Source of the DNA: a virus
Virus genome (UHGV): UHGV-0240527
Reading direction: 5' to 3' (one strand)
DNA length: 64,000 nucleotides
Both the position numbers and the translations under genes were made by a program. Numbering within the stretch: the first letter of the stretch is position 1; each line of letters opens with the position of its first letter. A model generated the notes under the pieces. That model had not been told where the DNA came from. It worked only from the letters and a program-made list of their open reading frames with translations, and did not search any database. Shown here one piece after another: positions 1 to 58,108 of this stretch.

Positions 1-23
1 AAAAAAATATTTGATAAAAACCG

Positions 24-52
24 TTGACACCCTAAAAAGGTTTACGTATTAT
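24..52 (+). promoter_or_regulatory. sigma70-type promoter (TTGACA, 17-bp spacer, TATTAT) upstream of first early ORF
   Basis: TTGACA at 24-29 and TATTAT at 47-52 read directly; GGAG RBS follows before ATG at 103. Confidence 0.5.
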
Positions 53-102
53 TTGCATCAGACGGGCAAGCTAGCCCACTTCCTAAACTGGAGAATCTAA
101 AA

Positions 103-294
103 ATGGCATCAAGAAAAATCAAAGTCGGTGATGAGGTTAACGTTAAGTATGAGCACTCTCATAAAATGTTAACTATTCGCTCTTACAAGGTTTATCAGGT
201 GGAAGCTATCCACGAAGACGGTACATTTTCCCTAAAAGGACATAGCGAACGTTTCCCTGCTGAATTGTTCGAAAAATGGAGTACTAAAAAATGA
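103..294 (+). CDS. hypothetical early protein
   Basis: ORF track; ATG preceded by GGAG RBS; part of co-oriented small-gene cluster. Confidence 0.6.
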   Translation: MASRKIKVGDEVNVKYEHSHKMLTIRSYKVYQVEAIHEDGTFSLKGHSERFPAELFEKWSTKK

Positions 295-497
295 TTTACA
301 GCCGTGAATTGATGGTTACAACTAACGTTAACACAAAGGCAAAACGTTTTTACATGCAAATCTGTGGCGTATGGTCCAGAATATCAGAAGCCGACTATTG
401 CAACTATGTAGAAACGGCAATCAACTCGAATTGCTACCTTACAAGAAGCACTAAGAATTTTACAAGGAAGACAGCGATTTACTACTACGATAAATAA
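291..497 (+). CDS. hypothetical early protein
   Basis: ORF track; start overlaps upstream stop (ATGA), suggesting translational coupling. Confidence 0.5.
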   Translation: MIYSRELMVTTNVNTKAKRFYMQICGVWSRISEADYCNYVETAINSNCYLTRSTKNFTRKTAIYYYDK

Positions 498-583
498 AGT
501 ACTTTACAAGGGGCTTACAGTTCGATAGAGTAAGCCCCAGATAAAGAGCTTTACTAACTAACCTTAAACTAGGAGATTCTAAA
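498..583 (+). promoter_or_regulatory. family A intergenic cassette: TTTACA/-10-like promoter overlapping GGGGCTTA..TAAGCCCC hairpin, conserved 5'UTR with GGAG RBS
   Basis: near-identical cassette occurs six times upstream of early ORFs; hairpin arms covary between copies. Confidence 0.5.
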
Positions 584-964
584 ATGGCTTATCGTGCACC
601 GAAATTCATCAACAAAGACAACTTTCGCAACGTACTGGAGAAGGCACTTGATGAAAAATTTAAAGGTAACATTATTATTGTTCACTCATTCAATTTTAAG
701 TATGACATCAACGGGAATAAAATAAACCATTACACGGCAACCATGTTAGATGGTACGCTATCAAGTGAAAAAGCCGTACTGAATGCACTTGCTGGACGTG
801 GTAAAAACCTGATAAGCTGCAATAAGAGACGTTATCAGGGTGGCGCATATGGTTATGATGATGCTGTTTACCATCTTGAAAATATGGGCTATTCAGTGGA
901 GAAAGCTGGAGTGTCTCAAATAATTGGTAGTGATGGCTATGTGACAATATTCAAAATTAAATAA
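584..964 (+). CDS. hypothetical early protein
   Basis: ORF track; conserved cassette and GGAG RBS upstream. Confidence 0.6.
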   Translation: MAYRAPKFINKDNFRNVLEKALDEKFKGNIIIVHSFNFKYDINGNKINHYTATMLDGTLSSEKAVLNALAGRGKNLISCNKRRYQGGAYGYDDAVYHLENMGYSVEKAGVSQIIGSDGYVTIFKIK

Positions 965-1051
965 AAAGTACTTTACAAGGGGCTTATAGTTCGGTAGAGT
1001 AAGCCCCAGATAAAGAGCTTTACCACTCAATCCTAAATTGGAGATTCTAAA
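965..1051 (+). promoter_or_regulatory. family A intergenic cassette (promoter, hairpin, conserved 5'UTR)
   Basis: TTTACA at about 972-977, TAGAGT at about 995-1000, hairpin at about 979-1007. Confidence 0.5.
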
Positions 1052-1342
1052 ATGGCTATTATCAAAAACGTTGTAATTCCTGCAAAAACTCGTGATGACG
1101 CTCGCATCATGGCGAAAAAGTTAGGCGGGAAAGTTGTTGACAACGGAAAACAATCTGCTGTAAGATGGGGCGTGAAGACTGATAGACAGTTGAAGTTAAA
1201 AAATTCACCCATAAACCTTTTTACATGTGTAAACACTATTGGGAAGACAAATGTATACACAAAAAAGGCATATATTAGACGCGTAGCCTTAACATCCCCC
1301 ATTCGTACAATGAGAGGTTATGCAAAACTGAAAATTAATTGA
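1052..1342 (+). CDS. hypothetical early protein
   Basis: ORF track; cassette and RBS upstream. Confidence 0.6.
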   Translation: MAIIKNVVIPAKTRDDARIMAKKLGGKVVDNGKQSAVRWGVKTDRQLKLKNSPINLFTCVNTIGKTNVYTKKAYIRRVALTSPIRTMRGYAKLKIN

Positions 1343-1430
1343 TAAAGTACTTTACAGGGGGCTTAAAAGTTGGTATCTTAAGCCCCAGATAAAGAGCTTT
1401 ACCACTAAATCCTAAACTGGAGATTCAAAA
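1343..1430 (+). promoter_or_regulatory. family A intergenic cassette (hairpin variant GGGGCTTAA/TTAAGCCCC)
   Basis: same architecture as the other family A copies with compensatory stem changes. Confidence 0.5.
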
Positions 1431-1943
1431 ATGAAAACTGTAGACGCTACCTTTGAAGTTGTAAAAGAAAAATTTACCATTATCTATGAAGCTGTTAATT
1501 GCTATGAAGCAAGCCACAACCTTGATAATTGGAAGTTTACGGATGACCATCAAGGCGGCGTGACTATTAAAAACCCCAACTATCAGTATAATGAATTTAA
1601 ATATGCAATCCCTTTACATTACAGCCTTAAACAGCTTTCAAGTGACTATGCAAAACAAGGCCGGGAAAATCCATCAAAAGAGGCTTACACCAGCTTACAG
1701 GGAGAACTAGAAAGGGATTTAGAGGCTTCAGAATATAACATTGCCGCGAAAGTTGTGGATGTAAACGGTAGAACGGTTTTAGACAGCTTTTACATTGGTT
1801 GCGCTTTTGATTGGGCCTATAGTGACGAGGAGAATTTAGAGGATAGACTAAGAGAAGAGGTGAACAACGCAGACGCAGAATCTGAAGTATTAGAACACTT
1901 GGAAGCATTAAAAGATTCAGTGATGAATATCTTTAAGGACTAA
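1431..1943 (+). CDS. hypothetical early protein
   Basis: ORF track; cassette and RBS upstream. Confidence 0.6.
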   Translation: MKTVDATFEVVKEKFTIIYEAVNCYEASHNLDNWKFTDDHQGGVTIKNPNYQYNEFKYAIPLHYSLKQLSSDYAKQGRENPSKEAYTSLQGELERDLEASEYNIAAKVVDVNGRTVLDSFYIGCAFDWAYSDEENLEDRLREEVNNADAESEVLEHLEALKDSVMNIFKD

Positions 1944-2031
1944 ATAGACCTCTTTACACGGGGCTATCAAGCTGATAAGATAGCCCCAGATAAAGAGCTT
2001 TACCACTAAATCCTAAACTGGAGATTCAAAA
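1944..2031 (+). promoter_or_regulatory. family A intergenic cassette (hairpin variant GGGGCTATC/GATAGCCCC)
   Basis: conserved TTTACA, 17-bp spacing to TAAGAT, conserved downstream UTR. Confidence 0.5.
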
Positions 2032-2328
2032 ATGAAATTATCAAATAAAGTCCGTGAAAATCTAAGCAAGTTGCTCAACAAAATTGATTTTATCGAGACA
2101 TCAAGGAATAGCCATGATGTTATGGAATGGTTACACGGCAAAATAAAAGGTCGCCGTGTAGTGATTTGCTTATGGAACAGTTGCAGGGAGTATAAAAAAC
2201 CTGTATTGCAAGTTAATATATACGATGATACTTTTAAAAGTCCTGTAAAGTCTAAAAGTGATTTATTAGAATCCTATGAGATAACTGTAAATGGCAAAGT
2301 ATCACGTAAAGAGGAAACACCATGTTAA
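2032..2328 (+). CDS. hypothetical early protein
   Basis: ORF track; cassette and RBS upstream. Confidence 0.6.
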   Translation: MKLSNKVRENLSKLLNKIDFIETSRNSHDVMEWLHGKIKGRRVVICLWNSCREYKKPVLQVNIYDDTFKSPVKSKSDLLESYEITVNGKVSRKEETPC

Positions 2329-2654
2329 TGACTGGTATCACTGCAATCATTGCCATTTTCGCGCTATATAAGGCATATAAAGCCTATAATCTAGCAAATA
2401 AGGCAATCACACAGCAGGTTAGCAATAGCCTTGTAGAAAGCTTTCTAGGGCGTCTCAGTGATGAGCAAATAAAGCGGTTAGAAATGAGCTTCAGATTCAA
2501 AGCGAAAACCTATCAGATAAGTGACATCTTCAAGGATGATTTCCAGTTAGCCGATGATTATAATTCTCTGATAAATGCTTTAAATATCAGTGACTTAAAA
2601 GACTACTACGCTGTAATTGTTCAAGAATTGAGCAAACGAAAACAAAACTGTTGA
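2322..2654 (+). CDS. hypothetical early protein
   Basis: ORF track; short overlap with upstream gene. Confidence 0.5.
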   Translation: MLMTGITAIIAIFALYKAYKAYNLANKAITQQVSNSLVESFLGRLSDEQIKRLEMSFRFKAKTYQISDIFKDDFQLADDYNSLINALNISDLKDYYAVIVQELSKRKQNC

Positions 2655-2743
2655 CACTTGTTTTTAGATAGACTAAATTACACATCAACGGGGAGGGAAT
2701 GACCTTCCCACTAAATAAAGTCCTTAAACTAGGAGATTCTAAA
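2655..2743 (+). promoter_or_regulatory. family B intergenic cassette: TTGACA, 17-bp spacer, TAAATT promoter followed by GGGGAGGGAATGACCTTCCCC UTR hairpin and GGAG RBS
   Basis: cassette occurs four times upstream of early ORFs. Confidence 0.5.
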
Positions 2744-3016
2744 ATGTATACTACTAACAATGGCCGCACTTTGAACGTCACACTACGTCACTATGTAGGT
2801 GGTGTCATGCACTTTGAAGATTTACAAGCTGAACAACATATCTTAGATTGGCAAGTAGCAGGACTCCAAAAAACTGCTACCGGATACGGCAAAAAGATTC
2901 CAACTAGCTGGAAAGTTCACTATGAAGGCCGTTTACGTAGAATTTATCAGGATGTATGTAGTAATAGCACATCAAGTTATATCATAGTAAAAGGTAAAAA
3001 GCTGCATTTAGCATAA
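2744..3016 (+). CDS. hypothetical early protein
   Basis: ORF track frame; start moved from 2699 to the ATG at 2744 that follows the conserved GGAG RBS (2699 lies inside the UTR hairpin). Confidence 0.55.
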   Translation: MYTTNNGRTLNVTLRHYVGGVMHFEDLQAEQHILDWQVAGLQKTATGYGKKIPTSWKVHYEGRLRRIYQDVCSNSTSSYIIVKGKKLHLA

Positions 3017-3101
3017 AGTACTTTACAAGGGGCTTATAGTTCGATAAAGTAAGCCCCAGATAAAGAGCTTTATCACTCAATCCTAAATTGGAGATTCAAA
3101 A
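3017..3101 (+). promoter_or_regulatory. family A intergenic cassette
   Basis: conserved promoter/hairpin/UTR module. Confidence 0.5.
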
Positions 3102-3506
3102 ATGACTATTAATAATCGTGAGTTATCAATCTTAAAAGCACGTTTGACCGTTAACCGGATTAATGTTATTACGTCATCAGCACCGGATGAGACATTGCAC
3201 AACATTATCGGGAAGATTCAAAGTGTTATCTTAGACGTTGAAAACGTAAAAAATTCATTAGCTGACGTTGCAGCAGGTATCACGCTAGACGGTGCACAAT
3301 ATGAAATGGCTGACATGTTAGGCAAATCTAAGGTAATGAATAAAGAGCTTGATTTAAAAATGTTCCGCTTTGCCGTGAAAGTGTGGCTATCTGTCGAGTA
3401 TGACGCAAATTTTGCAATCGCTGACTTTTTCGCAACATGGTTGCAACGTAATTTAACAAATCATGATTTCCGTGATATCTGCGACGTAATTTACGCAGAA
3501 CTTTAA
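3102..3506 (+). CDS. hypothetical early protein
   Basis: ORF track; cassette upstream. Confidence 0.6.
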   Translation: MTINNRELSILKARLTVNRINVITSSAPDETLHNIIGKIQSVILDVENVKNSLADVAAGITLDGAQYEMADMLGKSKVMNKELDLKMFRFAVKVWLSVEYDANFAIADFFATWLQRNLTNHDFRDICDVIYAEL

Positions 3507-3609
3507 AAATTTCTCTTGATTTTGGTTTTTAAAACAAGTAAATTACTAATCAACGGGGAGGGAATGACCTTCCCCACTAAGTAAAGTCCTTAAACTAGGA
3601 GATTCAAAA
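3507..3609 (+). promoter_or_regulatory. family B intergenic cassette
   Basis: TTGATT and TAAATT hexamers, GGGGAGGG..CCTTCCCC hairpin, GGAG RBS. Confidence 0.5.
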
Positions 3610-3813
3610 ATGGCTATTATTAACGGCTTAAACATTGAAACTACTCACATCAAAGATATCAAAGTTGGTGATATAGTCCTTTTTCACGGCGTAGAAAAAA
3701 CCGTCACTGAAAAGGATATCAAGGAGGATTCATTCATGGGCCGGACTCTCTTCGGTGATTCCTATTGCTTAGGTTACCTTGCAGTTTTAAAAGTTGTCAA
3801 AAATAACCGTTAA
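3610..3813 (+). CDS. hypothetical early protein
   Basis: ORF track; cassette upstream. Confidence 0.6.
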   Translation: MAIINGLNIETTHIKDIKVGDIVLFHGVEKTVTEKDIKEDSFMGRTLFGDSYCLGYLAVLKVVKNNR

Positions 3814-3899
3814 AGTACTTTACAAGGGGTTTATAGTTCGATAAAGTAAGCCCCAGATAAAGAGCTTTACCACATTAATCCTAAACTGGAGATTCAAAA
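3814..3899 (+). promoter_or_regulatory. family A intergenic cassette
   Basis: conserved promoter/hairpin/UTR module. Confidence 0.5.
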
Positions 3900-4442
3900 A
3901 TGAAATGCTTTCACGGTACTACTCAAGAAAACTTCGTCAACCTGATTAATAACGGTGATAAACCATCAGGCGCATGGAATTGTTCGGATATGGATGGCAA
4001 TTTTTACGTTTATCCAGAAAATAAAATCTATGGCGACGATGAGGAAGAAATAATCTCTGAAGGCATTCAACAAGCTTTAGGTAATGCCACTATAACGGCA
4101 GCTTTTCAGATGAAAACTCAAAACATTGTTATCTTGGAACTTGATATTCCAGAAGATGAGTTGAATGATGATTATTCTTGTGATAATATGTCGAGTGTGG
4201 CAAGTTTTACAGAGTATTTTGATATAAGCTGGATTAAAAAGGTTTATATCACTGAATTTAATGCTATGTTTTCACCTTTTTGTCTTCCTTCACTGGATAA
4301 CCCGAACTTAAACTATCTTGATGAGTCTCTGGAACTTCTCGCTAAAAGTGTTCAGCAATCGGACAGTATTCAGGTTTTTTGTGACATCATGGATACACTA
4401 ACAGGAAACATTGCAGAAGAGGATTTGAAGAGTTTTTTCTAA
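3900..4442 (+). CDS. hypothetical early protein (acidic)
   Basis: ORF track; cassette upstream. Confidence 0.6.
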   Translation: MKCFHGTTQENFVNLINNGDKPSGAWNCSDMDGNFYVYPENKIYGDDEEEIISEGIQQALGNATITAAFQMKTQNIVILELDIPEDELNDDYSCDNMSSVASFTEYFDISWIKKVYITEFNAMFSPFCLPSLDNPNLNYLDESLELLAKSVQQSDSIQVFCDIMDTLTGNIAEEDLKSFF

Positions 4443-4474
4443 AAACCTATGCAATCACCTTATAAACACTGATT

Positions 4475-4495
4475 AGCCCCTCACAGGGGCTTTTA
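4475..4495 (+). terminator. putative intrinsic terminator hairpin (AGCCCCT..AGGGGCT + TTTT)
   Basis: GC stem followed by T run, directly before AGGAGG RBS of next ORF. Confidence 0.45.
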
Positions 4496-4508
4496 GGAGG
4501 CTTTAATC

Positions 4509-4742
4509 ATGCTTACAACCATTTACCTCATCCTTTCTATCTGTAATGGTCATTCATGTGACTTTAAAGGGCTTGAAGAGTTTACAGGAAGTAAAGAAAA
4601 TGCTATTCAAGTGTGCCAGATAGCAAGGCAAGACTATCCCGCCAGTGATGATATTCAATGCTACTTTAAGACAGAAGATGACGATGGAATCTATTTCGAC
4701 AGTGTTGATGGTCAATATGAAATTATCATTGAAAAAGACTAG
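4509..4742 (+). CDS. hypothetical early protein
   Basis: ORF track; AGGAGG RBS. Confidence 0.55.
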   Translation: MLTTIYLILSICNGHSCDFKGLEEFTGSKENAIQVCQIARQDYPASDDIQCYFKTEDDDGIYFDSVDGQYEIIIEKD

Positions 4743-4831
4743 ACAAGCCTGATAAAAGTCTGTAAATTACACATCAACGGGGAGGGAATGACCTTCCCCA
4801 CTAAATAAAGTCCTAAACTGGAGTTATCAAG
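4743..4831 (+). promoter_or_regulatory. family B intergenic cassette
   Basis: TAAATT -10, GGGGAGGGAATGACCTTCCCC hairpin, conserved UTR. Confidence 0.5.
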
Positions 4832-5095
4832 ATGGAAAACGTAGAATTAACCACACTATTGCAGATTGCAACTGATAAAGAGGATGTAGCATTGTTCCAT
4901 CGCATCGAGAGTGATTTGTTCAATGGTGAAATCATCAAAGAGTCTTACGAAGTTGTCGGATTCAAAGATGGTAAAGCATTTGGCTTTTTTGACCTCGACA
5001 AAGGTAACGCGGTTACAAAGTACGATGTTCTATCTTGTGAAATTCTGACAAAATACAACGAAAAAAGGCTTGCAACCTACGCCAATATGCAGTAA
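4832..5095 (+). CDS. hypothetical early protein
   Basis: ORF track; cassette upstream. Confidence 0.55.
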   Translation: MENVELTTLLQIATDKEDVALFHRIESDLFNGEIIKESYEVVGFKDGKAFGFFDLDKGNAVTKYDVLSCEILTKYNEKRLATYANMQ

Positions 5096-5175
5096 ATTAC
5101 TAATCAACGGGGAGGGGATGACCTTCCCCACTAAATAAAACCCTTAAACTACTTCCTAAACTGGAGATTCAAAAA
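5096..5175 (+). promoter_or_regulatory. family B intergenic cassette
   Basis: TAAATT -10, GGGGAGGGGATGACCTTCCCC hairpin, conserved UTR. Confidence 0.5.
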
Positions 5176-5424
5176 ATGGCAACTATCCGCGCAATTGTAA
5201 ATTCTTATGGCTGCTACACTCTGGACGTTAAATTTGATATAGGCGGGACTGATGAGTGTTTCGAACTGGTGAAGACGGTCATTAAACAAGTTATCCCAGA
5301 CTATAACCCTACTGATGACTTCTGGAAAGATGCAGTAAAAGAGGCGTTGAGCGATGAATATCATTACCATTATTGGGGTGACTTGATTATCTCTCTGTAC
5401 TACAGCAAACAAGGTTACAACTAA
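5176..5424 (+). CDS. hypothetical early protein
   Basis: ORF track; cassette and RBS upstream. Confidence 0.6.
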   Translation: MATIRAIVNSYGCYTLDVKFDIGGTDECFELVKTVIKQVIPDYNPTDDFWKDAVKEALSDEYHYHYWGDLIISLYYSKQGYN

Positions 5425-5462
5425 TCGACGCAACGGGGCTATTTAGCCCCAGATACCTTTAC

Positions 5463-5490
5463 AGCCCCTTTCTCATAGGGGCTTTTTTAC
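5463..5490 (+). terminator. intrinsic terminator closing the early cluster
   Basis: AGCCCCT..AGGGGCT stem followed by TTTTTT; preceded by a family A-type GGGGCTA..TAGCCCC hairpin. Confidence 0.6.
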
Positions 5491-7095
5491 GTCTCTGTAA
5501 TAGCCTCTATACAACCCTTTCCCTTCCCTTTCCAGAATCTATCCCACTAATTCGATAGAATCTATCCCGTACCTTAAAAGCAATAACTCTATAGTCTACT
5601 CTATAACCTCTTATCAAATCAACTTAAATAAAAGCCCATAACCCGAAAGGGAAGGGCAACCATTTAAACGCTCTATAAAGCCCTATAACAGCCTTATCAA
5701 CCTAACTTAAGGGATTGCATTAACCCACTCTAAAAAGCCCTTTATAGAGCTTCCCAGAGCCTTAGAAGAATCTTATAAGGGTGTAAGCTTTATCATCTCG
5801 TTAGTATTCTTGTGAACTACTAAAAAGGGCTTGGTAGTTCCTTTAAAGTATGTTATAGGGGCTATAAAGTTACTTTGAAGTAGCTTAAAAGTTACGTAAA
5901 TGCTAGCCCCCTTAACATTTTCTTAACAATTTCTTAACAAACCCTACATAGTTATGCTTGTTAGAGACTTGTTAGCCCCTTGTTAAATCTCTGTTAAGAC
6001 CACGTAAAAGCCTTGTAAGAGTCTTTAGCATAGCCTTTAAAGCCTCTGTAAAGCCCTATAAAGAGCTATCCATACAGTTGAGGGGTAGATACTAGGAAGA
6101 GACTTAAAAGAGCTTATAAAGAGCTATAGAGAGCTTTTAAGAGGTATGTTTAGAGAATCACTAAGTAAGAGAGGGAACGATAAGGAAGAGTTAGTGACCA
6201 TGTTAATAGCTTGTTAAAAAGATTAAACACTTGTTAGGAACTTGTTAATTATCCCTACAAAATAACTCTTTAAAATTAACTTGTTAGCTCTTGTTAGTCA
6301 TCTGTTAAGATTCTGTAAAGTCTATGTATCAACTGTTAAGAAACTGTTACATCCTTGTTAGTTCTGTTAAGAATCTGTTAAGACCTTTGGAGAGATGTTA
6401 AGAGCTTGTGAGAACTGTTAAGAGATTGTTAAGGATATTTTAAAATTCTGCAAAGGGATGGTAAGGGAGTTGTTAAGGGTTACCAAGCAGATATACATCC
6501 TAATCAGATATTTTTGAGTTCCTTCAAAGACCCTAAAAAATGACTTGATAGTCCTATTTTATAAAAATTTTAAAAATCTGAATAATTACCTAGACAGTCT
6601 TTTAAAAATACAGGTAGAAACAGGCTTATAAGATACCTTGTTAGTACCGTGTTAGACCTTGTGAGATAAGGTCTGTGAAGATATTCCTGTTAAGTTTGTT
6701 AAAACAGTCTATATAGAGGTTTAGTAATACCTAGTGAACACCTATAGAGGGTAACATAGCTTACCTAGAGATTAAGAGGTGTATAGAGGCTTCTAAGAGC
6801 GTATAGAGAGATGGTTAAGGTGATTGTATAGGTTGTTAAGAAGGCTTGTTAGAAGATTGTTTATAAGGCTTATTAAAGGGCTAGTTAGAAGGCTTATACA
6901 GGGGGCTATTAAGACCACTAGATAGTTACTAAGATACTATATAGTACTATATAACTATATAGAGAGTAAGATTAAGGAGGTTGTTAAGAAGGATAGATAT
7001 TTTGTTCACATATGCTGGTGACCCAGAGGTTGGGACAACCGATAAAATTTTATAAAAATTAAAAAAGCCCCCAATTAAGGAGGCTCTTAAGGTAT
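5490..7095. repeat. 1.6-kb non-coding region dense in short direct repeats (TGTTAAG/TGTTAGG family, CTATAAAG/CTTAAAAG family)
   Basis: no ORF of 60 aa or more on either strand in the track; dozens of YTGTTARG copies read directly, e.g. around 5950-6010 and 6190-6480. Confidence 0.7.
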
Positions 7096-7097
7096 TT

Positions 7098-7721
7098 TTA
7101 AATCAGTGTTTCCAGAACTGTTTTTAGTGATGACTTGGTTGTCTGATAAAAATGAGTAAAGCCGTTGTTGTTATCGAATATCTGCATCATGATATCATCT
7201 CCCTTGATTGGGTATACTCGGATATCATAGTGAAAACCATTAAAGACACAAGACCCATTACAGAATGCACTAAAGTCATCCACTGAGATATACTCTTCAT
7301 GTCCTGTGATTTTTATACAGATACCTTTACTCGGTCTCTTAGGATTAATATCTTCCATCACAGACATATTCTGTCCACCAAGAGATACCATAGTGACCAC
7401 TTTACGGTTCTTCTGTCTAAAGTACATCTTAACTTTCTGCAAAGTGTCTTCATAGAACGGATAAGACCTAGCTACAAAGATTCCTTCAAGTGGCTCTTTA
7501 CCATTTTCAACTTCTCTGGTATGTCGTACTGCAAAGATAATTTGTTGGAACCAGTTAAGATTTTCTTCGGAGAGTGCTTCTCGAACATCACTCCAGTCAA
7601 GGACTAAGTAGTTACCTTCAACTTCTTTTAAGTTATCTTTTTCCATATCTATCACACCATTATCGTAAAACTTGATATTCTGGTACTGCGAATTTATTAC
7701 TATTGTTCTTGATGAGGTCAT
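7098..7721 (-). CDS. hypothetical protein
   Basis: ORF track; first gene of long minus-strand operon (last transcribed). Confidence 0.45.
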   Translation of the reverse strand: MTSSRTIVINSQYQNIKFYDNGVIDMEKDNLKEVEGNYLVLDWSDVREALSEENLNWFQQIIFAVRHTREVENGKEPLEGIFVARSYPFYEDTLQKVKMYFRQKNRKVVTMVSLGGQNMSVMEDINPKRPSKGICIKITGHEEYISVDDFSAFCNGSCVFNGFHYDIRVYPIKGDDIMMQIFDNNNGFTHFYQTTKSSLKTVLETLI

Positions 7722-15083: not shown

Positions 15084-15105
15084 AACTATTGCAAGTTAAA
15101 AAAGT

Positions 15106-15130
15106 TGTTGACAAAGTACTTGACAAGGTG
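15106..15130 (+). promoter_or_regulatory. conserved tandem TTGACA element (GTTGACAAAGTACTTGACAAGGTG) in divergent promoter region
   Basis: near-identical 23-mer recurs at about 58109-58133 in the other divergent intergenic region. Confidence 0.45.
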
Positions 15131-15257
15131 TAGGCTTATAAATACTTAGAAGATAACTTAAAAGGTTCCTCTAAAAAGGCTATTTAAACAGATATCTTTC
15201 TGGATATCTATCTTTTATCTTAAAAGCCTTTTAAGAGGTCTTATAAGAGGCATACCA

Positions 15258-17173: not shown

Positions 17174-17235
17174 GTTCTACATAGAAACGAAATGAGAGCT
17201 TTTCTAAGATACTGAAAAATATTTTAAAAAAGTTC

Positions 17236-17264
17236 TTGACAACCACTAAAAAATAATGTTAAAG
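17236..17264 (+). promoter_or_regulatory. candidate second promoter upstream of tRNA array (TTGACA, weak -10)
   Basis: TTGACA at 17236-17241; -10 ambiguous. Confidence 0.3.
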
Positions 17265-17291: not shown

Positions 17292-17368
17292 CTCTGTTTA
17301 GCTCAGCTTGGTAGAGCGTTCCGTTTGGGGCGGTAAGGCCGGAGGTTCAAGTCCTCCAACAGAGACCA
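17292..17368 (+). tRNA. tRNA-Pro (anticodon UGG)
   Basis: manual cloverleaf: 7-bp acceptor CTCTGTT/AACAGAG, T-loop TTCAAGT, anticodon loop TTTGGGG, CCA encoded. Confidence 0.65.
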
Positions 17369-17375
17369 AATTAAT

Positions 17376-17453
17376 GTTCCAGTAGACAAAATGGTAAAGT
17401 CACCACTCTTTCAAAGTGGATATCTGAGGGTTCAAATCCCTTCTGGAACGCCA
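17376..17453 (+). tRNA. tRNA-Glu (anticodon UUC)
   Basis: 7-bp acceptor GTTCCAG/CTGGAAC, anticodon stem CCACT/AGTGG, loop CTTTCAA, CCA encoded. Confidence 0.7.
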
Positions 17454-17543
17454 GTTTTGACAGAAGACCAATTACAGCAAACTTAATCTACTCATCTGAA
17501 AGTTAATCGGACAAAGAAGATATTTGGTCTGGTCATTAAGAAT

Positions 17544-17620
17544 TGCGGGTATAGAGAAAGGGCGTCTCACATGTCTCATTAGCATGGTATCGGCAGGTTC
17601 GACTCCTGCACCCGCCTCCA
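17544..17620 (+). tRNA. tRNA with CAU anticodon (Met, initiator or Ile2); non-canonical features
   Basis: T-arm GCAGG/CCTGC and 6 of 7 acceptor pairs with 1:72 mismatch; anticodon loop CTCATTA; 3-nt 8/9 linker. Confidence 0.45.
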
Positions 17621-17703
17621 AATTTACAGAAGACCGTTTACAGCAATATTTATTAAATTTTTAGCGGAAAAATTGAAAGATACGGTCTGGTAATACTAAA
17701 CAT

Positions 17704-17780
17704 GGTTAGGAAGCACATAAGGTATGTGCGGTCGCCTGTTAAGCGAATGGCACAGGGTTCGAATCCCTGACTAACCGCCA
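17704..17780 (+). tRNA. tRNA-Asn (anticodon GUU)
   Basis: acceptor GGTTAGG, D-stem GCAC/GTGC, anticodon loop CTGTTAA, T-loop TTCGAAT, CCA encoded. Confidence 0.7.
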
Positions 17781-17849
17781 AATTTAGGAGAGAAGTGATT
17801 GCTCACCGATTTGTAAGGTGCAAGTCCTTAGCCTGAATAGAAATTAAAT

Positions 17850-17937
17850 GTGTCGTTATCCCGTAGATGGTAGCGGTGGGGACTGTAAATCCCTTGTCAT
17901 TGAGACTCGGTAGGTTCGACTCCTACACGGCACACCA
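17850..17937 (+). tRNA. tRNA-Tyr (anticodon GUA), long variable arm
   Basis: acceptor GTGTCGT/ACGGCAC, anticodon stem GGGGA/TCCCT, loop CTGTAAA, 88 nt, CCA encoded. Confidence 0.7.
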
Positions 17938-17942
17938 ATAAA

Positions 17943-18019
17943 GGCTATGTAGTTTAACTGGAGAAAATACTCCCCTGTCACGGGAGATGATGTGAGTTCA
18001 AGTCTCATCGTAGCCGCCA
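17943..18019 (+). tRNA. tRNA-Asp (anticodon GUC)
   Basis: acceptor GGCTATG/CGTAGCC, anticodon stem CTCCC/GGGAG, loop CTGTCAC, CCA encoded. Confidence 0.75.
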
Positions 18020-18448
18020 ATTTTGAGAGGGCTGTTTAGCCCATCCCTTAAAGAGTTCTTACGAGTATTCTTTAAGGGAGCAGAAGACCAAATACAGCAA
18101 GAATGTATGAAATTTCAAGCCAATTTAATTTTGAAAATTTAAAACTTGGTCTGGCTCAACAAATTTACAGAAGGCCGTTTACAGCAAAACTTAAACAATC
18201 TATTTCTCCGGTAAAGAAAAGGCGAAGGTTCGATTCCTTCACTCGGCAGATGTCGAGTTGGTGTAATGGTAGCACTTAAGATGATAAACAACGGTCTGGT
18301 AATTACCTTTGTAGATAAGTTATTAAGCTTACTTGTGAGTATGCGACCACAAAGGGTGAATGGGTAAATTCTAGATTTAAACCCAAAAAGGCACATCGCT
18401 ACAGACCTTAAGCAAGTCTGGGTAGCTTATCTACAAAGATAATTTAAT

Positions 18449-18524
18449 GGAAGTGTAGCAGAATGGTGATGCGGCAGACTTTTAATCTGACAGGCGATGG
18501 GTTCGAATCCCTCCACTTCTACCA
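18449..18524 (+). tRNA. tRNA-Lys (anticodon UUU)
   Basis: acceptor GGAAGTG/CACTTCT, anticodon loop CTTTTAA; T-stem imperfect; paralog of the CUU Lys tRNA. Confidence 0.6.
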
Positions 18525-18528
18525 ATAT

Positions 18529-18605
18529 GGTTCAGTCGCAGATAAGGTAATGCAAGGGTCTCATAAGCCCTATGAATGTGGGTTCGATTCCCATCTGAAC
18601 CTCCA
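18529..18605 (+). tRNA. tRNA with CAU anticodon (Met or Ile2)
   Basis: perfect 7-bp acceptor GGTTCAG/CTGAACC, anticodon stem AGGGT/GCCCT, loop CTCATAA, CCA encoded. Confidence 0.7.
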
Positions 18606-18606
18606 A

Positions 18607-18682
18607 GCTGGTATAGTTAAGAAGGTTATAACACTCCCCTGATAAGGGAACATCGGTGGTTCGATTCCACCTACCAGTACCA
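18607..18682 (+). tRNA. tRNA-Ile (anticodon GAU)
   Basis: acceptor GCTGGTA/TACCAGT, D-stem GTTA/TAAC, anticodon loop CTGATAA, T-arm GGTGG/CCACC, CCA encoded. Confidence 0.75.
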
Positions 18683-18697
18683 ATTTCAATAAAGTTG

Positions 18698-18726
18698 TTG
18701 ACATTGAGATGTGACTACTTTATAGT
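18698..18726 (+). promoter_or_regulatory. sigma70-type promoter inside tRNA array (TTGACA, 17 bp, TATAGT)
   Basis: hexamers and spacing read directly. Confidence 0.55.
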
Positions 18727-18930
18727 AACCTTAGTTTTCGTTGCGTAGCGTCTATTTTGCAAATTTAAAATAAATGCAAACGACAATGTTTTTCTGGCAG
18801 TAGCTTGATAGGCTAAACACCAGTGAGGTCTTCCAATCCCTCATCAAAGAATTTGGCGTACTCGCCCACGGTATGATTAATAAGGTGGGCATCTTTAAGG
18901 GCTTTCTAAGAGAGTCTTTAAAGATAATTA

Positions 18931-19012
18931 CGGGGCGTATCTCAGCGGTCTTCTAAACCGCCGTTAACCGAGTAAGTGGAGTATGCGGGTTCGAGTCCTG
19001 CCGCCTCGACCA
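18931..19012 (+). ncRNA. tRNA-like element: perfect acceptor stem and T-arm but no canonical D-arm; internal hairpin with loop CTTCTAA (UCU)
   Basis: 7-bp acceptor CGGGGCG/CGCCTCG, T-arm GCGGG-TTCGAGT-CCTGC, CCA encoded; body cannot be folded into a standard cloverleaf. Confidence 0.4.
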
Positions 19013-19026
19013 ATTTTGGAGAAATC

Positions 19027-19374
19027 ATGAAAACTTGTATTAGGTGCAAACTTAGCAAGGATGAAAATGATTTCTACATGAAAGATGGTAGGAGAACTCA
19101 TTCATACTGTAAAAAGTGTGTTAATGAGCAAACCATAGAAAGACAAAGAGCACTTAAACTCTTAGCTATTGAGTACAAAGGTGGGGTTTGTCATGATTGT
19201 GGTAAGAAGTATCATCCAGCAGTGTATGACTTCCATCATTTGAATCCTTCAGATAAAGATTTTAACATTGGTCATAGGAAAAGCCTTAAGTTCTCTCAAG
19301 AACTAAAAGATGAACTTGACAAATGTGTTTTGCTATGTTCAAATTGCCATAGGGTAAGACATGCAAAATATTAG
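19027..19374 (+). CDS. HNH family homing endonuclease
   Basis: motifs CxxC..CxxC, DFHHLNPSDKDFNIG and CSNCHRVRH typical of HNH nucleases; start moved to ATG with GGAG RBS (track start is an upstream GTG inside the tRNA-like element). Confidence 0.7.
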   Translation: MKTCIRCKLSKDENDFYMKDGRRTHSYCKKCVNEQTIERQRALKLLAIEYKGGVCHDCGKKYHPAVYDFHHLNPSDKDFNIGHRKSLKFSQELKDELDKCVLLCSNCHRVRHAKY

Positions 19375-19511
19375 TTAGCAGATTACTTAGACGACCTTAG
19401 CGGGTCTTCCTGTAGGGAGGTGGTCTGTATCTCATGTTTTCCAGAACATGTAAATAATCTGAGAAGGGGCTTTACAGTGTTGAGATAATACGGTAAGCTT
19501 CGAATTATAGT

Positions 19512-19594
19512 ATGGGACGATGTTAAGACTCTAAGGCATGAGCAACGGCTTCCAACACCGTTTCAAAGGGGTTCAACTCCTCCGTCCCATGCCA
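19512..19594 (+). ncRNA. tRNA-like element with aberrant anticodon arm (9-nt loop CTTCCAACA containing UCC); possible degenerate tRNA-Gly paralog
   Basis: perfect 7-bp acceptor ATGGGAC/GTCCCAT and T-arm with CCA, but non-canonical D region and loop size. Confidence 0.4.
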
Positions 19595-19607
19595 AAGTCT
19601 TATTAGG

Positions 19608-19695
19608 GGTAGGTAGCGGCTAATGGTAGCCAAACTGTCTTGAAAACAGTTGCCACTGTAGAGATACGGTGAGGGTTCGACTCCTTTACTTACCG
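19608..19695 (+). tRNA. tRNA-Ser (anticodon UGA), class II
   Basis: acceptor GGTAGGT/ACTTACC, anticodon stem ACTGT/ACAGT, loop CTTGAAA, long variable arm, G73; CCA not encoded. Confidence 0.65.
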
Positions 19696-19852
19696 CCTAA
19701 TAAGATTTAAAGCCAAGCTTCATTCGGATGTTGCTTTGGTATCCCTCGTGTATTGTCGTACACACTGATAAAACACCTAGTAGGTGTCACGGAGAAGAGA
19801 TAATATCAAGCTCTCCAAAGGTTCTAGTCACCGGATTAAACAAGACTATGCA

Positions 19853-19875
19853 AAGACCTATTTAGGTCTTTTTAG
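19853..19875 (+). terminator. putative intrinsic terminator within tRNA array
   Basis: AAGACCTA..TAGGTCTT hairpin followed by TTTT. Confidence 0.45.
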
Positions 19876-19952
19876 AGGGCTTCTAAGGTTATTACAGCTT
19901 GTTGTGGAACCTTGTTGCTTAGGTTCTTAGAAGTTCTCTAAAAAGATTTAAT

Positions 19953-20029
19953 GCACCTATAGCCCAACTGGTAGAGGCAGCAGACTTAGAATCTGCTCAG
20001 TGTGAGTTCGAATCTCTCTAGGTGTACCA
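19953..20029 (+). tRNA. tRNA-Leu (anticodon UAG) with short variable arm
   Basis: acceptor GCACCTA/TAGGTGT, anticodon stem GCAGA/TCTGC, loop CTTAGAA, A73, 77 nt, CCA encoded. Confidence 0.6.
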
Positions 20030-20036
20030 AATTAAT

Positions 20037-20112
20037 GCAGGTGTAGCAGAATGGTTATGCGGCTGACTCTTAATCAGTAAGACGATGGGTTCAATTCCCT
20101 CCACCTGTACCA
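20037..20112 (+). tRNA. tRNA-Lys (anticodon CUU)
   Basis: acceptor GCAGGTG/CACCTGT, anticodon stem GCTGA/TCAGT, loop CTCTTAA, CCA encoded. Confidence 0.65.
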
Positions 20113-20118
20113 AACATT

Positions 20119-20194
20119 GGGGATGTAGTTTACATGGTTAAAACATAAGTTTTGCAAACTTAAGTACAGGGTTCAATTCCCTGCTTCTCCACCA
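20119..20194 (+). tRNA. tRNA-Ala (anticodon UGC)
   Basis: G3:U70 wobble pair present in acceptor; D-stem GTTT/AAAC; anticodon stem TAAGT/ACTTA, loop TTTGCAA; CCA encoded. Confidence 0.7.
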
Positions 20195-20200
20195 ATTAGT

Positions 20201-20275
20201 GCATCCATAGTTTAAACGGGAAAATTACAGTCTTCCAAACTGAGGTTGAGGGTTCGATTCCCTCTGGATGCTCCA
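20201..20275 (+). tRNA. tRNA-Gly (anticodon UCC)
   Basis: perfect acceptor GCATCCA/TGGATGC, T-arm GAGGG/CCCTC, anticodon loop CTTCCAA, CCA encoded. Confidence 0.7.
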
Positions 20276-20281
20276 AACAAT

Positions 20282-20358
20282 GCTGCTTTCGTATAATTGG
20301 CTATTACACATCCCTTGTAAGGATGGAAATGCAGGTTCGAGTCCTGTGAGCAGCACCA
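20282..20358 (+). tRNA. tRNA-Thr (anticodon UGU)
   Basis: acceptor GCTGCTT/GAGCAGC, anticodon stem CATCC/GGATG, loop CTTGTAA, CCA encoded. Confidence 0.75.
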
Positions 20359-20454
20359 ATTCAGAGGTCAAGTGAAAGACCGCTTTGAGTCAACTGAAGA
20401 CCGTAACAAATACCACGGAGTTGAGTTAGCGGCACAACTTCAGACCTCTTTCAT

Positions 20455-20529
20455 ACTCGCTTAGTTTATATGGTAAAACATCACCATTACAAGATGAAGA
20501 AAAAGGTTCAAGTCCTTTAGTGAGTACCA
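20455..20529 (+). tRNA. tRNA-Val (anticodon UAC)
   Basis: acceptor ACTCGCT/AGTGAGT, D-stem GTTT/AAAC, anticodon loop ATTACAA, T-arm AAAGG/CCTTT, CCA encoded. Confidence 0.7.
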
Positions 20530-20530
20530 T

Positions 20531-20608
20531 GTTCCAGTATCCCAATTGGCAGAGGATGCAAGCTCAAACCTTGTATTAGTGACGGTTCGAATCCGTCTTG
20601 GAACACCA
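20531..20608 (+). tRNA. tRNA-Leu (anticodon CAA) with short variable arm
   Basis: acceptor GTTCCAG/TTGGAAC, anticodon stem GCAAG/CTTGT, loop CTCAAAC, A73, 78 nt, CCA encoded. Confidence 0.55.
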
Positions 20609-20613
20609 ATTTT

Positions 20614-20686
20614 GCAGGATTAGTTCAAATGGAAAGAGCAACAGTCTACGAAGCTGTTAATAGGGGTTCGAATCCCTTATCCTGCG
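20614..20686 (+). tRNA. tRNA-Arg (anticodon ACG)
   Basis: perfect acceptor GCAGGAT/ATCCTGC, D-stem GTTC/GAGC, anticodon loop CTACGAA; CCA not encoded. Confidence 0.7.
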
Positions 20687-20706
20687 CTAGATAAAAAGGT
20701 GATACT

Positions 20707-20949
20707 ATGCAAACATTAACAGTAGTTGAACATGAAAACTGTGAGAGTATTGAGTTTGTCAGGGTCATTGGTGTTGAACACCACATTTTCTTAAAAGTGG
20801 GATACTTATGTGACCCCGCTAGAGTAGAAAGATTTATACGTGATTGTTTTGGTGGTAGACATCTGAAGAGTGTTATTTTTGAGACAGTTTTACCAGAAGG
20901 TTTAGAAACGAATAATAACATTTACCTCCTTACGAGGATTAGACAATGA
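20707..20949 (+). CDS. hypothetical protein (embedded in tRNA array)
   Basis: ORF track; AAAGGTGA RBS. Confidence 0.45.
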   Translation: MQTLTVVEHENCESIEFVRVIGVEHHIFLKVGYLCDPARVERFIRDCFGGRHLKSVIFETVLPEGLETNNNIYLLTRIRQ

Positions 20950-21503
20950 GATACTTAAAGTATGCTTCATGGATTTTCTTAGCTTTGTTAGAGCCATTTG
21001 CAGCAATCTTAGCAGTTATCTTAGCACCTTTTGTAGTTCCATTCTACAGTGAGAAGAAAGGACACTTACCTTTCGGGTTCAGATGGATGGAGACATATGA
21101 CAACCCAATTGATGGTGATGAAGGTCACGTTAAAAGATGGGCTAATATTAGATGGATTGGTAAGCTGGGTGTCTACATGCAGAGAGTTGGATGGCTCTGG
21201 AGAAACAAAGCTTATAACTTCTCTTACCATGTATTAGGAAGAGATGTAAAAGATGTTACTAAGTGGAAAGGTAATATCAACGTAAGTTCTGACCCCGAAG
21301 ATAATCAGACAGGTTATCTCCTAATGTGGAACAGTAATGCTTGGGGATTATTCGCTTTTATCCCATCAATTAAAATCTTTGGTAAACAATTTTACTGGAG
21401 AATTTATATTGGATGGAAACTAAAAAGTGTTGTCCCAGAAGAAAGAGCATTCTCAAGGGAAAGAGTTATGTTGGCATTCTTTATTCATCCACTGAGAAAG
21501 TAA
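20946..21503 (+). CDS. hypothetical membrane protein (embedded in tRNA array)
   Basis: ORF track; hydrophobic N-terminus WIFLALLEPFAAILAVILAPFVVPF; start overlaps upstream stop. Confidence 0.5.
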   Translation: MRYLKYASWIFLALLEPFAAILAVILAPFVVPFYSEKKGHLPFGFRWMETYDNPIDGDEGHVKRWANIRWIGKLGVYMQRVGWLWRNKAYNFSYHVLGRDVKDVTKWKGNINVSSDPEDNQTGYLLMWNSNAWGLFAFIPSIKIFGKQFYWRIYIGWKLKSVVPEERAFSRERVMLAFFIHPLRK

Positions 21504-21511
21504 AGATTTAA

Positions 21512-21587
21512 AGGGGATTAGTTTACAAGGTTAAAACCTCGGTCTTTGAAATCGAAGAAGTTGGTTCAATTCCAACATCCCCCGCCA
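21512..21587 (+). tRNA. tRNA-Gln (anticodon UUG)
   Basis: unpaired 1:72, G73, D-stem GTTT/AAAC, anticodon stem TCGGT/ATCGA, loop CTTTGAA, CCA encoded. Confidence 0.7.
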
Positions 21588-21589
21588 AT

Positions 21590-21668
21590 GCTCCATTACT
21601 CCAATTGGCAGAGAGGCCAGACTTAAAATCTGTGTTATGTATCGGTTCGAATCCGATATGGAGTACCA
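21590..21668 (+). tRNA. tRNA-Leu (anticodon UAA) with short variable arm
   Basis: acceptor GCTCCAT/ATGGAGT, anticodon loop CTTAAAA, T-arm ATCGG/CCGAT, A73, 79 nt, CCA encoded. Confidence 0.55.
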
Positions 21669-21673
21669 AATTT

Positions 21674-21749
21674 AGCGGTATAGCATAACTGGCAATGCAG
21701 CAGCCTCTGAAGCTGTCCTATTAAGGTTCAAATCCTTATGCCGCTGCCA
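21674..21749 (+). tRNA. tRNA-Gln (anticodon CUG)
   Basis: acceptor AGCGGTA/TGCCGCT, D-stem GCAT/ATGC, anticodon stem GCAGC/GCTGT, loop CTCTGAA, G73, CCA encoded. Confidence 0.7.
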
Positions 21750-21780
21750 CTTCTAAGGATTCTTGCGAGAGTCCTTAAAT

Positions 21781-21856
21781 GTGGCCTTATCATAAATGGT
21801 AATGACCCATGCTGTGAACATGGTCTATACGGGTTCAAATCCCGTAGGTCACCCCA
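21781..21856 (+). tRNA. tRNA-His (anticodon GUG)
   Basis: acceptor GTGGCCT/AGGTCAC, D-stem TCAT/ATGA, anticodon stem CCATG/CATGG, loop CTGTGAA, C73, CCA encoded. Confidence 0.7.
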
Positions 21857-21861
21857 ATTTA

Positions 21862-21936
21862 TAGTCCAAGTAGCTTATATGGTTAAAGCGCGTGTCTGAA
21901 AAACATGAGAAGAGGGTTCAAATCCCACTGGACTAC
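21862..21936 (+). tRNA. tRNA-Phe (anticodon GAA)
   Basis: perfect acceptor TAGTCCA/TGGACTA, anticodon stem CGTGT/ACATG, loop CTGAAAA; 3' terminus ambiguous. Confidence 0.6.
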
Positions 21937-21954
21937 CAATTTCAAAGGTGCTTA

Positions 21955-22689: not shown

Positions 22690-22691
22690 AT

Positions 22692-22784: not shown

Positions 22785-22788
22785 ATTT

Positions 22789-58050: not shown

Positions 58051-58108
58051 TTTTACTCCCTCTAAAATCATTAACCTCATACATTACTGCAAAAAATTAT
58101 AAAAAGCA

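Follow-up and report, generated by a model that had tools for sequence, protein, structure and literature searches.

The early gene cluster and its intergenic cassettes

The 64,000-nucleotide stretch of virus genome UHGV-0240527 analyzed here, hereafter the window, opens at the start of an early cluster of small co-oriented open reading frames (ORFs), and nearly all intergenic gaps of this cluster are filled by repeated cassettes of two families, A and B. Each cassette extends from the stop codon of the small gene before it to the next ATG and forms a module of approximately 100 bp, in which a host-type promoter, a GC-clamped hairpin, a standard leader, and a ribosome site are combined. The evidence makes it likely that these modules are composite promoter/stem-loop/ribosome-binding-site (RBS) cassettes of a Felix O1-like phage, of the type described in T4-like phages as promoter-early stem-loops (PeSLs).

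The source genome was identified by megablast of window positions 1-6000 against GenBank phages (260 records). The records were nearly all Felix O1-like phages of Escherichia, Salmonella, Shigella, and Citrobacter, with KhF3 as the best match (89.5% identity over 99% of the query), and the window was assigned to a Felix O1-like phage of the genus Felixounavirus (Ounavirinae). A cassette stands ahead of 11 of the 14 cluster genes; the other three genes overlap the preceding gene or come after a canonical terminator. All ten cluster ORFs that were scanned belonged to PHROG families of unknown function, and the Pfam threshold was passed by none of the cluster ORFs. The number of genes in the homologous cluster varies among relatives. 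On the 3′ side, the cluster is followed by a non-coding stretch, oppositely oriented genes, 25 tRNA genes, and the structural genes.

The cassettes were delimited with a repeat finder, which returned a 106-nt unit in six copies and a 61-nt unit in four copies (Table 1). These coordinates agreed with the two families of six and four cassettes given in a preliminary description of the locus. All ten were recovered, and an eleventh cassette, C1, has to be added as a subtype of family B; its GGGC..GCCC hairpin recurs in relatives, at Suspvirus loci. The diagnostic string AGCCCCAGATAAAGAGC occurred six times against 0.10 expected from shuffles, and CAACGGGGAGGGAATGACCTTCCCC occurred four times against 0.00. 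All copies of both strings lay within positions 1-5200 on the + strand, and no cassettes were found in the remainder of the 64-kb window.

In family A, the upstream stop codon lies 5-9 nt before TTTACA, inside the stretch (A)TAAAGTAC, and TTTACA is followed by one base, the 5′ arm GGGG(C/T)nnnn, a 10-11-nt loop holding the TA of the -10 element, and the 3′ arm nnnnGCCCC. The 3′ part consists of the box AGATAAAGAGCTTTAC, the remaining leader, CCTAAACTGGAGATTCAAAA, and the ATG, the leader from hairpin to ATG measuring about 44-45 nt. The alignment thus reproduced the TTTACA hexamer, the 17-nt spacer, the TAnnnT overlapping the hairpin, and the conserved leader that had been described. Family B has a TTGACA-like hexamer, 17 nt, TAAATT, ACnnATCAAC, the hairpin GGGGAGGG-AATGA-CCTTCCCC, a leader, an RBS region like that of family A, and the ATG, with the hairpin beginning 10 nt after TAAATT. 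For this family, the TAAATT and the leader hairpin were found as described, and two details are amended: a -35 hexamer, of four different sequences, had been omitted at 17 nt from the -10, and the stem of B1 is reduced to 7 bp by the loss of one C from its 3′ arm. The string CCTAAACTGGAGATTC(A)AAAATG is present in eight cassettes, with variants in the remaining ones. A GGAG Shine-Dalgarno (SD) sequence stands at fixed spacing in the leader, which is unstructured except for a weak 3-4-bp stem at the SD.

Table 1. Cassettes and associated features of the early cluster (window positions)
Feature	Position	Strand	Repeat unit	Upstream stop codon	-35	-10	Hairpin	ATG	Remarks
Early cluster	103..5424	+							14 small co-oriented ORFs of 63-180 aa (ORF list), starting at 103, 291, 584, 1052, 1431, 2032, 2322, 2744, 3102, 3610, 3900, 4509, 4832, 5176
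C1 (B subtype)	10..102	+			TTGACA 24-29	TATTAT 47-52	GGGC-AAGCTA-GCCC 64-77	103	SD GGAG
A1	487..583	+	487-592	495-497	503-508	TAGAGT 526-531	510-538 (GGGGCTTAC/GTAAGCCCC)	584	Invariant box AGATAAAGAGCTTTAC from 539; SD
A2	956..1051	+	956-1061	962-964	972-977	TAGAGT 995-1000	979-1007	1052	
A3	1335..1430	+	1335-1440	1340-1342	1351-1356	TATCTT 1374-1379	1358-1386 (GGGGCTTAA/TTAAGCCCC)	1431	
A4	1936..2031	+	1936-2041	1941-1943	1953-1958	TAAGAT 1976-1981	1960-1987 (GGGGCTATC/GATAGCCCC)	2032	10-nt loop
B1	2640..2743	+	2672-2732		TTGACA 2651-2656	TAAATT 2674-2679	2690-2709 (leader)	2744	7-bp stem
A5	3006..3101	+	3006-3111	3014-3016	3022-3027	TAAAGT 3045-3050	3029-3057	3102	
B2	3505..3609	+	3537-3597		TTGATT 3516-3521	TAAATT 3539-3544	3555-3575 (leader)	3610	
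A6	3803..3899	+	3803-3908	3811-3813	3819-3824	TAAAGT 3842-3847	3826-3854 (GGGGTTTAT/GTAAGCCCC)	3900	T·G wobbles at pairs 5 and 9
Canonical intrinsic terminator	4475..4494	+					AGCCCCT-CAC-AGGGGCT-TTTT		Inside cluster
B3	4729..4831	+	4761-4821		TAGACA 4740-4745	TAAATT 4763-4768	4779-4799 (leader)	4832	
B4	5059..5175	+	5091-5151		TTGCAA 5070-5075	TAAATT 5093-5098	5109-5129 (leader)	5176	
Hybrid hairpin, promoter-less	5435-5450 (region 5431-5489)	+					CAAC-GGGGCT-ATTT-AGCCCC-AGATA..CTTTAC		After last cluster gene
Canonical terminator	5463-5489	+							T-run; at cluster end

Putative host-type promoters and covariation of the hairpins

Hexamers of the sigma-70 type at a spacing of 16-18 nt were found in 11 of 11 window cassettes. 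In the six window copies of family A, TTTACA and the 17-nt spacer are constant and the -10 varies (Table 1). A consensus promoter scan listed all family-A sites and three B-type sites, and the other two B-type sites were found by direct reading. A covariance model built from the six window copies of family A was then run on the window and on 20 loci from public collections. It returned 107 copies above 51 bits, with a clear gap to the next scores, in 19 genomes of the genera Felixounavirus, Mooglevirus, Suspvirus, and Kolesnikvirus; 102 of these copies were parsed for promoter and wobble counts, and the 101 distinct copies were used for pairing statistics. TA...T was located exactly 17 nt after TTTACA in 95 of the 102 parsed copies, amid loop and flanking bases that vary freely. 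A second covariance model, for family B, found 41 copies, and the -35, the 17-nt spacer, and TAAATT or TAAAGT were present in every copy of the family-B alignment. As had been proposed, the cassettes are therefore supported as carriers of putative host sigma-70 early promoters.

In Felix O1, ORFs 16, 20, 21, and 22 of the homologous cluster peaked at 5 min after infection in reverse transcription PCR (RT-PCR) (PMC3185647). The authors proposed five putative promoters different from these, described secondary promoters further downstream as unknown, and reported no phage RNA polymerase (PMC3185647). Two other promoter arrangements were considered and rejected. A second promoter formed with the downstream CTTTAC box has no TAnnnT at 16-18 nt. 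The hairpin promoters of the N4 virion RNA polymerase have a 5-7-bp stem and a 3-nt loop, and promoters of this or another phage polymerase were rejected for the cassettes on account of the 9-bp stem, the 10-12-nt loop, and the clear sigma-70 hexamers.

The preliminary description had also argued from covarying stem arms that secondary structure is selected in addition to the promoter. The arm variants TTAC/GTAA, TTAA/TTAA, and TATC/GATA on which it relied are all present and complementary, and the cassette alignment with covariation analysis was run on the window copies and their relatives. Covariation was strong in family A, where it was already evident in the window; in family B, it appeared only when relatives were added. 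Across the 101 distinct family-A copies, 98.3% of the cells of the 9-bp stem were paired, compared with 83.5% when partners were shuffled. Cells changed on both sides numbered 119 against 24.4 expected, and the covariation score was 0.366 against 0.111 after shuffling. On sliding the 3′ arm by 1-3 columns, pairing fell to 20-56% and the score to ≤0.025. The covariation thus exceeded both the shuffle and the slide controls, and an earlier set of 62 copies gave the same picture.

Double-sided changes affect four of the nine family-A stem pairs. At pair 3, enterobacterial phages have G-C and all Erwinia-type copies have U-A; pairs 7 and 8 alternate in concert (UUA/UAA vs UAU/AUA); and pair 9 occurs as five pair types. 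Single genomes hold several arm variants, each of them complementary, and the loop measures 10-12 nt across the 102 parsed copies. The leader hairpins of family B vary as well (GGGGAGGG/CCTTCCCC, GGGGC/GCCCC, GGGC/GCCC, and GGGA/TCCC), with their position 10 nt after the -10 kept; in the 41 copies, 96.6% of the stem cells were paired and the covariation score was 0.114 against 0.045. Predicted RNA folds ranged from -15.6 to -22.9 kcal/mol, with z values of -1.9 to -6.0 for family A.

The strand on which the structure is formed can be judged from the wobble pairs. Among the non-Watson-Crick stem cells of the parsed family-A copies, 75 were G·T and one was A·C. As A·C is the wobble of the other strand, this excess indicates that the structure is favored on the sense strand. 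The asymmetry favors RNA or sense-strand single-stranded DNA (ssDNA) over a symmetric protein operator or a cruciform. The family-A hairpin thus looks to be under selection for folding of the sense strand, most likely as RNA rather than ssDNA, which supports the preliminary inference that a folded structure, and not a promoter alone, is selected.

The same counts bear on the reading of the inverted repeat as a double-stranded DNA operator, at which a dimeric phage or host regulator would shut off the early promoters, or as a cruciform. The palindrome does overlap the region from -35 to +1, the flanking boxes AAAGTACTTT and AAAGAGCTTT are near-palindromic and extremely conserved, and the switch from GGGG/CCCC to GGTG/CACC across Erwinia phages could mean co-evolution with a protein. 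However, the arms vary within single genomes yet stay complementary, which a protein reading fixed half-sites would not need. The wobble excess, moreover, places A·C mismatches on the complementary strand, and loops of 10-12 nt disfavor extrusion. An operator or cruciform was considered very unlikely.

Hairpin placement and candidate roles

The hairpin is placed differently in the two families. The family-A hairpin, which begins 12-15 nt past the stop codon of the upstream gene, spans the spacer, the -10, and +1, with the -10 in its loop and 3′ arm. Transcription is predicted to start 7-8 nt past the -10, at the A of CCCC-AGATAAAG, where the 3′ arm ends. With the start at this position, the transcript of the cassette itself would be without the 5′ arm, and only read-through RNA from upstream would fold the hairpin. 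In family B, the cassette's own transcript is predicted to begin 2-3 nt ahead of the hairpin. We infer both the start sites and the hairpin role. A terminator or attenuator of read-through and a processing site, the two roles suggested in the preliminary description, are the leading candidates for the hairpin, and they are indistinguishable by computation.

If the hairpins were ordinary Rho-independent terminators, the cassettes would be simple terminator-promoter pairs. The GC-rich stems shortly past the stop codons would fit this, and a PeSL stem-loop of the T4-like phage RB49 cut lacZ expression as strongly as rrnB T1 (PMC2839356). Some B hairpins were also flagged as terminators by the annotators of KhF and wV8, but on the opposite strand. 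The stems are, however, followed by AGAUAAAG or ACUAAAUA without a U-tract; the hairpin tails AGATAAAG and ACTAAATA hold no U-rich tract within 0-2 nt, the spacing used as the criterion for intrinsic terminators. A terminator pattern scan of the + strand called none of the cassette hairpins and returned only 5463-5483 and chance sites, and the 10-12-nt loop of family A is long for a terminator. Canonical terminators are present in the same cluster (Table 1), and the site homologous to the first of them, at 4475-4494, is annotated as Rho-independent in the wV8 record. As the cassette hairpins have no U-tract and canonical terminators occur beside them, they do not appear to be ordinary intrinsic terminators, and the terminator-promoter pair was judged unlikely.

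In the KhF3 and wV8 records, family-B leader hairpins are labeled as Rho-independent terminators on the strand opposite to the cluster genes (L001 3119-3139, 3984-4004, and 5543-5563; L002 8092-8112). These labels are most likely an artefact of automatic prediction. A terminator for antisense transcription was rejected, because the minus strand would have A·C mismatches in place of the wobbles and carries no genes there.

Processing was considered with reference to phage T7, whose early genes have RNase III processing sites between them. The T7 sites resemble family A in being intercistronic hairpins that extend over some two helical turns and are interrupted by an internal loop, and such a structure could leave a protective 3′ hairpin on the upstream message. 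They differ in not being embedded in promoters. The resemblance depends on a possible outer helix in family A, which is weakly supported and is absent in family B. In the minimum free energy (MFE) folds of all six window copies of family A, AAAGUACUUUA, comprising the -35 and the preceding A-rich stretch, pairs with UAAAGAGCUUU, the invariant box after the start. In the predicted fold, a 3x3 internal loop separates the inner 9-bp stem from an outer helix of ~10 bp, giving an interrupted duplex of ~22 bp. The outer helix was 98.4% paired in 62 copies, and one outer pair changed from G-C to U-A on both sides in 7 of these copies; the larger set has 11 such cases among 102. The invariance of AGATAAAGAGCTTT across four genera would also be explained by its pairing with the -35 and UP region, which the promoter constrains.

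A T7-like RNase III site in family A would be cleaved on the 3′ side of the internal loop. The hairpin would then stay on the upstream mRNA, and the downstream 5′ end would be nearly that of the promoter-initiated transcript. Against this, six of the ten outer pairs are invariant and thus uninformative, only one pair covaries, the same pair is broken in 8 of 102 copies, and one position is always mismatched. Family B would have to do without the outer helix. Furthermore, the 5′ and 3′ boxes are near-palindromes as well as direct repeats of each other, so other explanations of their pairing exist. RNase III processing of family A was accordingly regarded as possible, with rather low probability.

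Transcript stabilization is a further candidate role. A 5′-terminal stem-loop of the ompA type blocks 5′-end-dependent attack by RNase E and the decay that follows it, and Emory, Bouvet and Belasco reportedly identified the stem-loop of the ompA leader as a stabilizer in 1992. The family-B hairpin resembles it in its short distance from the predicted 5′ end. The likeness is limited by the fact that family-A transcripts would be without such a hairpin and that the family-B start is itself predicted.

In the reading as PeSL-type cassettes, a sigma-70 promoter in each cassette would allow each gene to be transcribed alone straight after infection. The family-A hairpin would mark the 3′ boundary of the upstream message, where, in the preferred version, it may attenuate read-through and/or, once the A/U-rich leader has been cleaved, shield the upstream 3′ end. 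The family-B hairpin would also serve as a 5′ stabilizer of its own transcript. Finally, ~100 bp of repeated sequence could provide the recombination homology by which single genes are gained, lost, or replaced together with a cassette.

Other known systems were also compared. Rfam gave no family match in positions 1-7200, where two sub-threshold hits were attributed to chance. Two loci returned by a degenerate-pattern scan of IMG/VR had neither a hairpin nor a model match and were likewise dismissed as chance. T4 RegB-like cleavage of the conserved GGAG sites was dropped, as the genes annotated 'endoribonuclease/RegB' in relatives match no RegB family. Such 'RegB-like' genes lie upstream of the cluster in several relatives (L008 1790-2380, L004 2986-3495, and L006 3657-4202) and are elsewhere labeled 'Vs.1' or 'putative lysin'. 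They match only the lytic transglycosylase (SLT) domain, above the Pfam cut-off in one of three cases and weakly in two of three, and the RegB label in relatives looks wrong.

Likeness to PeSLs and exchange of genes at cassettes

PeSLs were described in the T4-like phages RB49/phi1 and later in PST/T4 and nt-1/KVP40 (Arbiol et al. 2010, PMC2839356; Comeau et al. 2014, PMC4122927). A PeSL is defined by a sigma-70 promoter preceded by a stop codon within an A-rich stretch, a stem made of a G-run and a C-run with G·T pairs, and an SD and ATG at the 3′ end; the stem may fall between the -35 and -10, cover the -10, or come directly after it (PMC2839356). PeSLs are found ahead of orphan genes, in hyperplastic regions, where they mediate the shuffling of modules (PMC2839356, PMC4122927). 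Direct reading of RB49 spacers gave a stop codon, an A-rich stretch, TTGACA, a GGGG..CCCC stem between the -35 and -10 or over the -10, and then GGAGAATCAAAAATG. One such spacer reads TAAAAAGTTGTTGACAGGGGGTCACCGATCCCCTATAATG...GGAGAATCAAACATG, and one RB49 subclass has the -10 inside the hairpin, as in family A.

The cassettes of the window agree with the PeSLs in hexamer spacing, the A/T-rich surroundings of the upstream stop codon, stem placement, and the SD and ATG. The likeness extends to the layout, the total length of ~70-100 bp, the setting in a variable region ahead of small genes of unknown function, and the indels and replacements that break at the cassettes. The RBS strings are nearly alike (GGAGAATCAAAAATG in RB49 PeSLs and GGAGATTCAAAAATG here). 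On the other hand, the host phage belongs to the Ounavirinae and not to the Straboviridae, and the cassettes have a longer leader (about 45 nt), an invariant AGATAAAGAGCTTT box, a possible outer helix, and two discrete families. For RB49, experiments have established promoter and terminator activity as well as mini-circles, whereas the evidence on the cassettes here comes from sequence; covariation and strand asymmetry, shown here, were not reported in the 2010 PeSL paper (PMC2839356).

A search of RB49 with the two covariance models, R1 and R2, gave weak matches (21-28 bits, E 0.005-0.14), and 4 of 4 R1 matches and the best 3 of 5 R2 matches were on the gene strand of PeSL-bearing or PeSL-like spacers. 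Blastn of the cassettes returned only Ounavirinae records, with ~1,300 copies in 288 GenBank genomes, and no T4-like phage. As far as layout and motifs can tell, the cassettes are the same kind of element as PeSLs, which does not amount to demonstrable homology. This identity and the role of the cassettes as recombination breakpoints go beyond the preliminary description.

A repeated promoter-like motif, TAAAAAAGTTGTTGACAAAGTACTTGACAAGGTGT, with two tandem -35-like hexamers, is present elsewhere in the window at 15097-15131, 17213-17247, and 58100-58134, and in inverted orientation at 18684-18707 and 52434-52457. Its AAAAGTTGTTGACA portion is the string that heads the RB49 PeSLs.

The repeats had been listed before. 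The direct repeats of Felix O1 (PMC3185647) and DR_1 to DR_9 of wV8 are these sequences, given without interpretation: the 57-bp Felix O1 repeat CTTTACATGGGGCTTAAAAGTCTGTAAAGTAAGCCCCAGATAAAGAGCTTTACCACT corresponds to family A, and the 39-bp repeat TTGACACTGG...TTAAATTACACATCAAC corresponds to the family-B promoter. The wV8 paper did not discuss the repeats, and no paper terming them PeSL-like was found in the literature searched.

Exchange at the cassettes was evaluated by comparing window positions 1-5600 with KhF3, wV8, FO1a, BPS17W1, BPSELC-1, BPS15Q2, and MBP4696116. The internal ends of colinear blocks lay ≤8 nt from a cassette in 14 of 15 cases, and the cassettes make up 20% of the region. 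At A6 (KhF3), A3/A4 (wV8), and B3 (wV8), the flanking colinear blocks have a single cassette in common, on which they overlap, as is characteristic of exchange between repeats. Where the window has A6 only, KhF3 carries an extra small gene between two copies. The 170-aa gene between A3 and A4 is missing in wV8, which retains one cassette, and wV8 has 1.4 kb of extra sequence after B3. The colinearity with FO1a extends exactly from A3 to B2. In addition, genus-specific diagnostic bases are common to all copies in a genome, which points to spread or conversion among copies.

From such mobility, it could be argued that duplication and recombination left the repeats behind as neutral remnants whose hairpin has no selected function. 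Spread and recombination of the cassettes are indeed clear, and diagnostic bases are shared within a genus. Nevertheless, their core is kept in phages whose genomes are ~52% identical overall (PMC4472883), compensatory changes hold pairing at 98%, and the hexamer positions are kept while adjacent loop bases drift. A neutral origin was therefore considered scarcely credible.

Several points count against the interpretation as PeSL-type cassettes with RNA hairpins. The breakpoints at cassettes partly reflect that indels are tolerated only between genes. Most of the covariation cells come from few changes spread among paralogous and orthologous copies, corresponding to ~6-10 independent events, and G·T pairs are tolerated in ssDNA too, so RNA is not proven. 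Classical termination by the cassette hairpins is doubtful. In Felix O1, ORFs 14, 17, 19, and 23, some of which stand behind cassettes, peaked at 25 min, as determined by crude RT-PCR (PMC3185647). Mapped transcript 5′ or 3′ ends or RNA-seq data for Felix O1-like phages were not found in the literature searched.

Felix O1 is the classic diagnostic and biocontrol phage, and its genome paper left the early promoters and the passage of terminators as unknown. The cassettes provide approximately ten strong candidate early promoters per genome, together with a portable promoter/leader/RBS unit. They also extend the PeSL idea outside the T4-like phages, a question left open by its authors, and with it the view of PeSLs as regulatory cassettes through which accessory genes are expressed and also shuffled. 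What is added here is a second, unrelated phage group, covariation with strand asymmetry, family-specific hairpin placement, and a possible outer helix.

A more speculative extension would be that family A is a dual-entry module whose extended hairpin, with the outer helix joining the -35 region to the invariant box at +1..+15, is a processing site, and that PeSL-like cassettes with RNA-selected hairpins represent a general, integron-like means of gene capture. It is offered as a conjecture that is more probably wrong than right by a wide measure. If it were true, cleavage would give read-through RNA the 5′ leader of promoter-initiated RNA and would cap the upstream message with a protective hairpin. 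Gene capture of this kind would then be common to unrelated virulent phage families and not a peculiarity of the T4 group.

The promoter-less hairpin after the last cluster gene (5435-5450) combines both families: its 5′ side is B-like (CAACGGGG), and its stem GGGGCT/AGCCCC and tail AGATA..CTTTAC are A-like. It sits directly 5′ of the canonical terminator at 5463-5489 and, judging from this composition, looks like a recombinant or decayed cassette.

Beyond the cluster, a gene-free region of ~1.6 kb (5490-7090) separates the cluster from the oppositely oriented genes, and Felix O1 has an equivalent gap between gp23 and gp24. The region is dense in short repeats with a 10-11-bp period (CTGTTAAG, CTTGTTAG, AAAGAGCTAT, and CTATAAAGCC). 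This phasing suggests protein-binding iterons or bent DNA, possibly at an origin or genome-end region. In the public records, GenBank GU169904.1, entered as Staphylococcus phage SA1 (147 kb), shares ~4.8 kb with this Felix O1-like early cluster at 90% identity and is probably a chimeric or contaminated assembly. The 25 tRNA genes of the window lie at 17292-22864 on the + strand and include two each for Met, Lys, Gln, and Ser and three for Leu. Two further non-coding blocks, at 50645-51000 and 52164-52385, contain 5-nt-periodic CCnnA/ACCnn tracts (e.g., CCATACCAAACCCGACCTCACCTCAC), each followed by a conserved CTTAAAAACCCTCTTAGAAGACTCTTAAGTGATG-like box, of which there are five copies.

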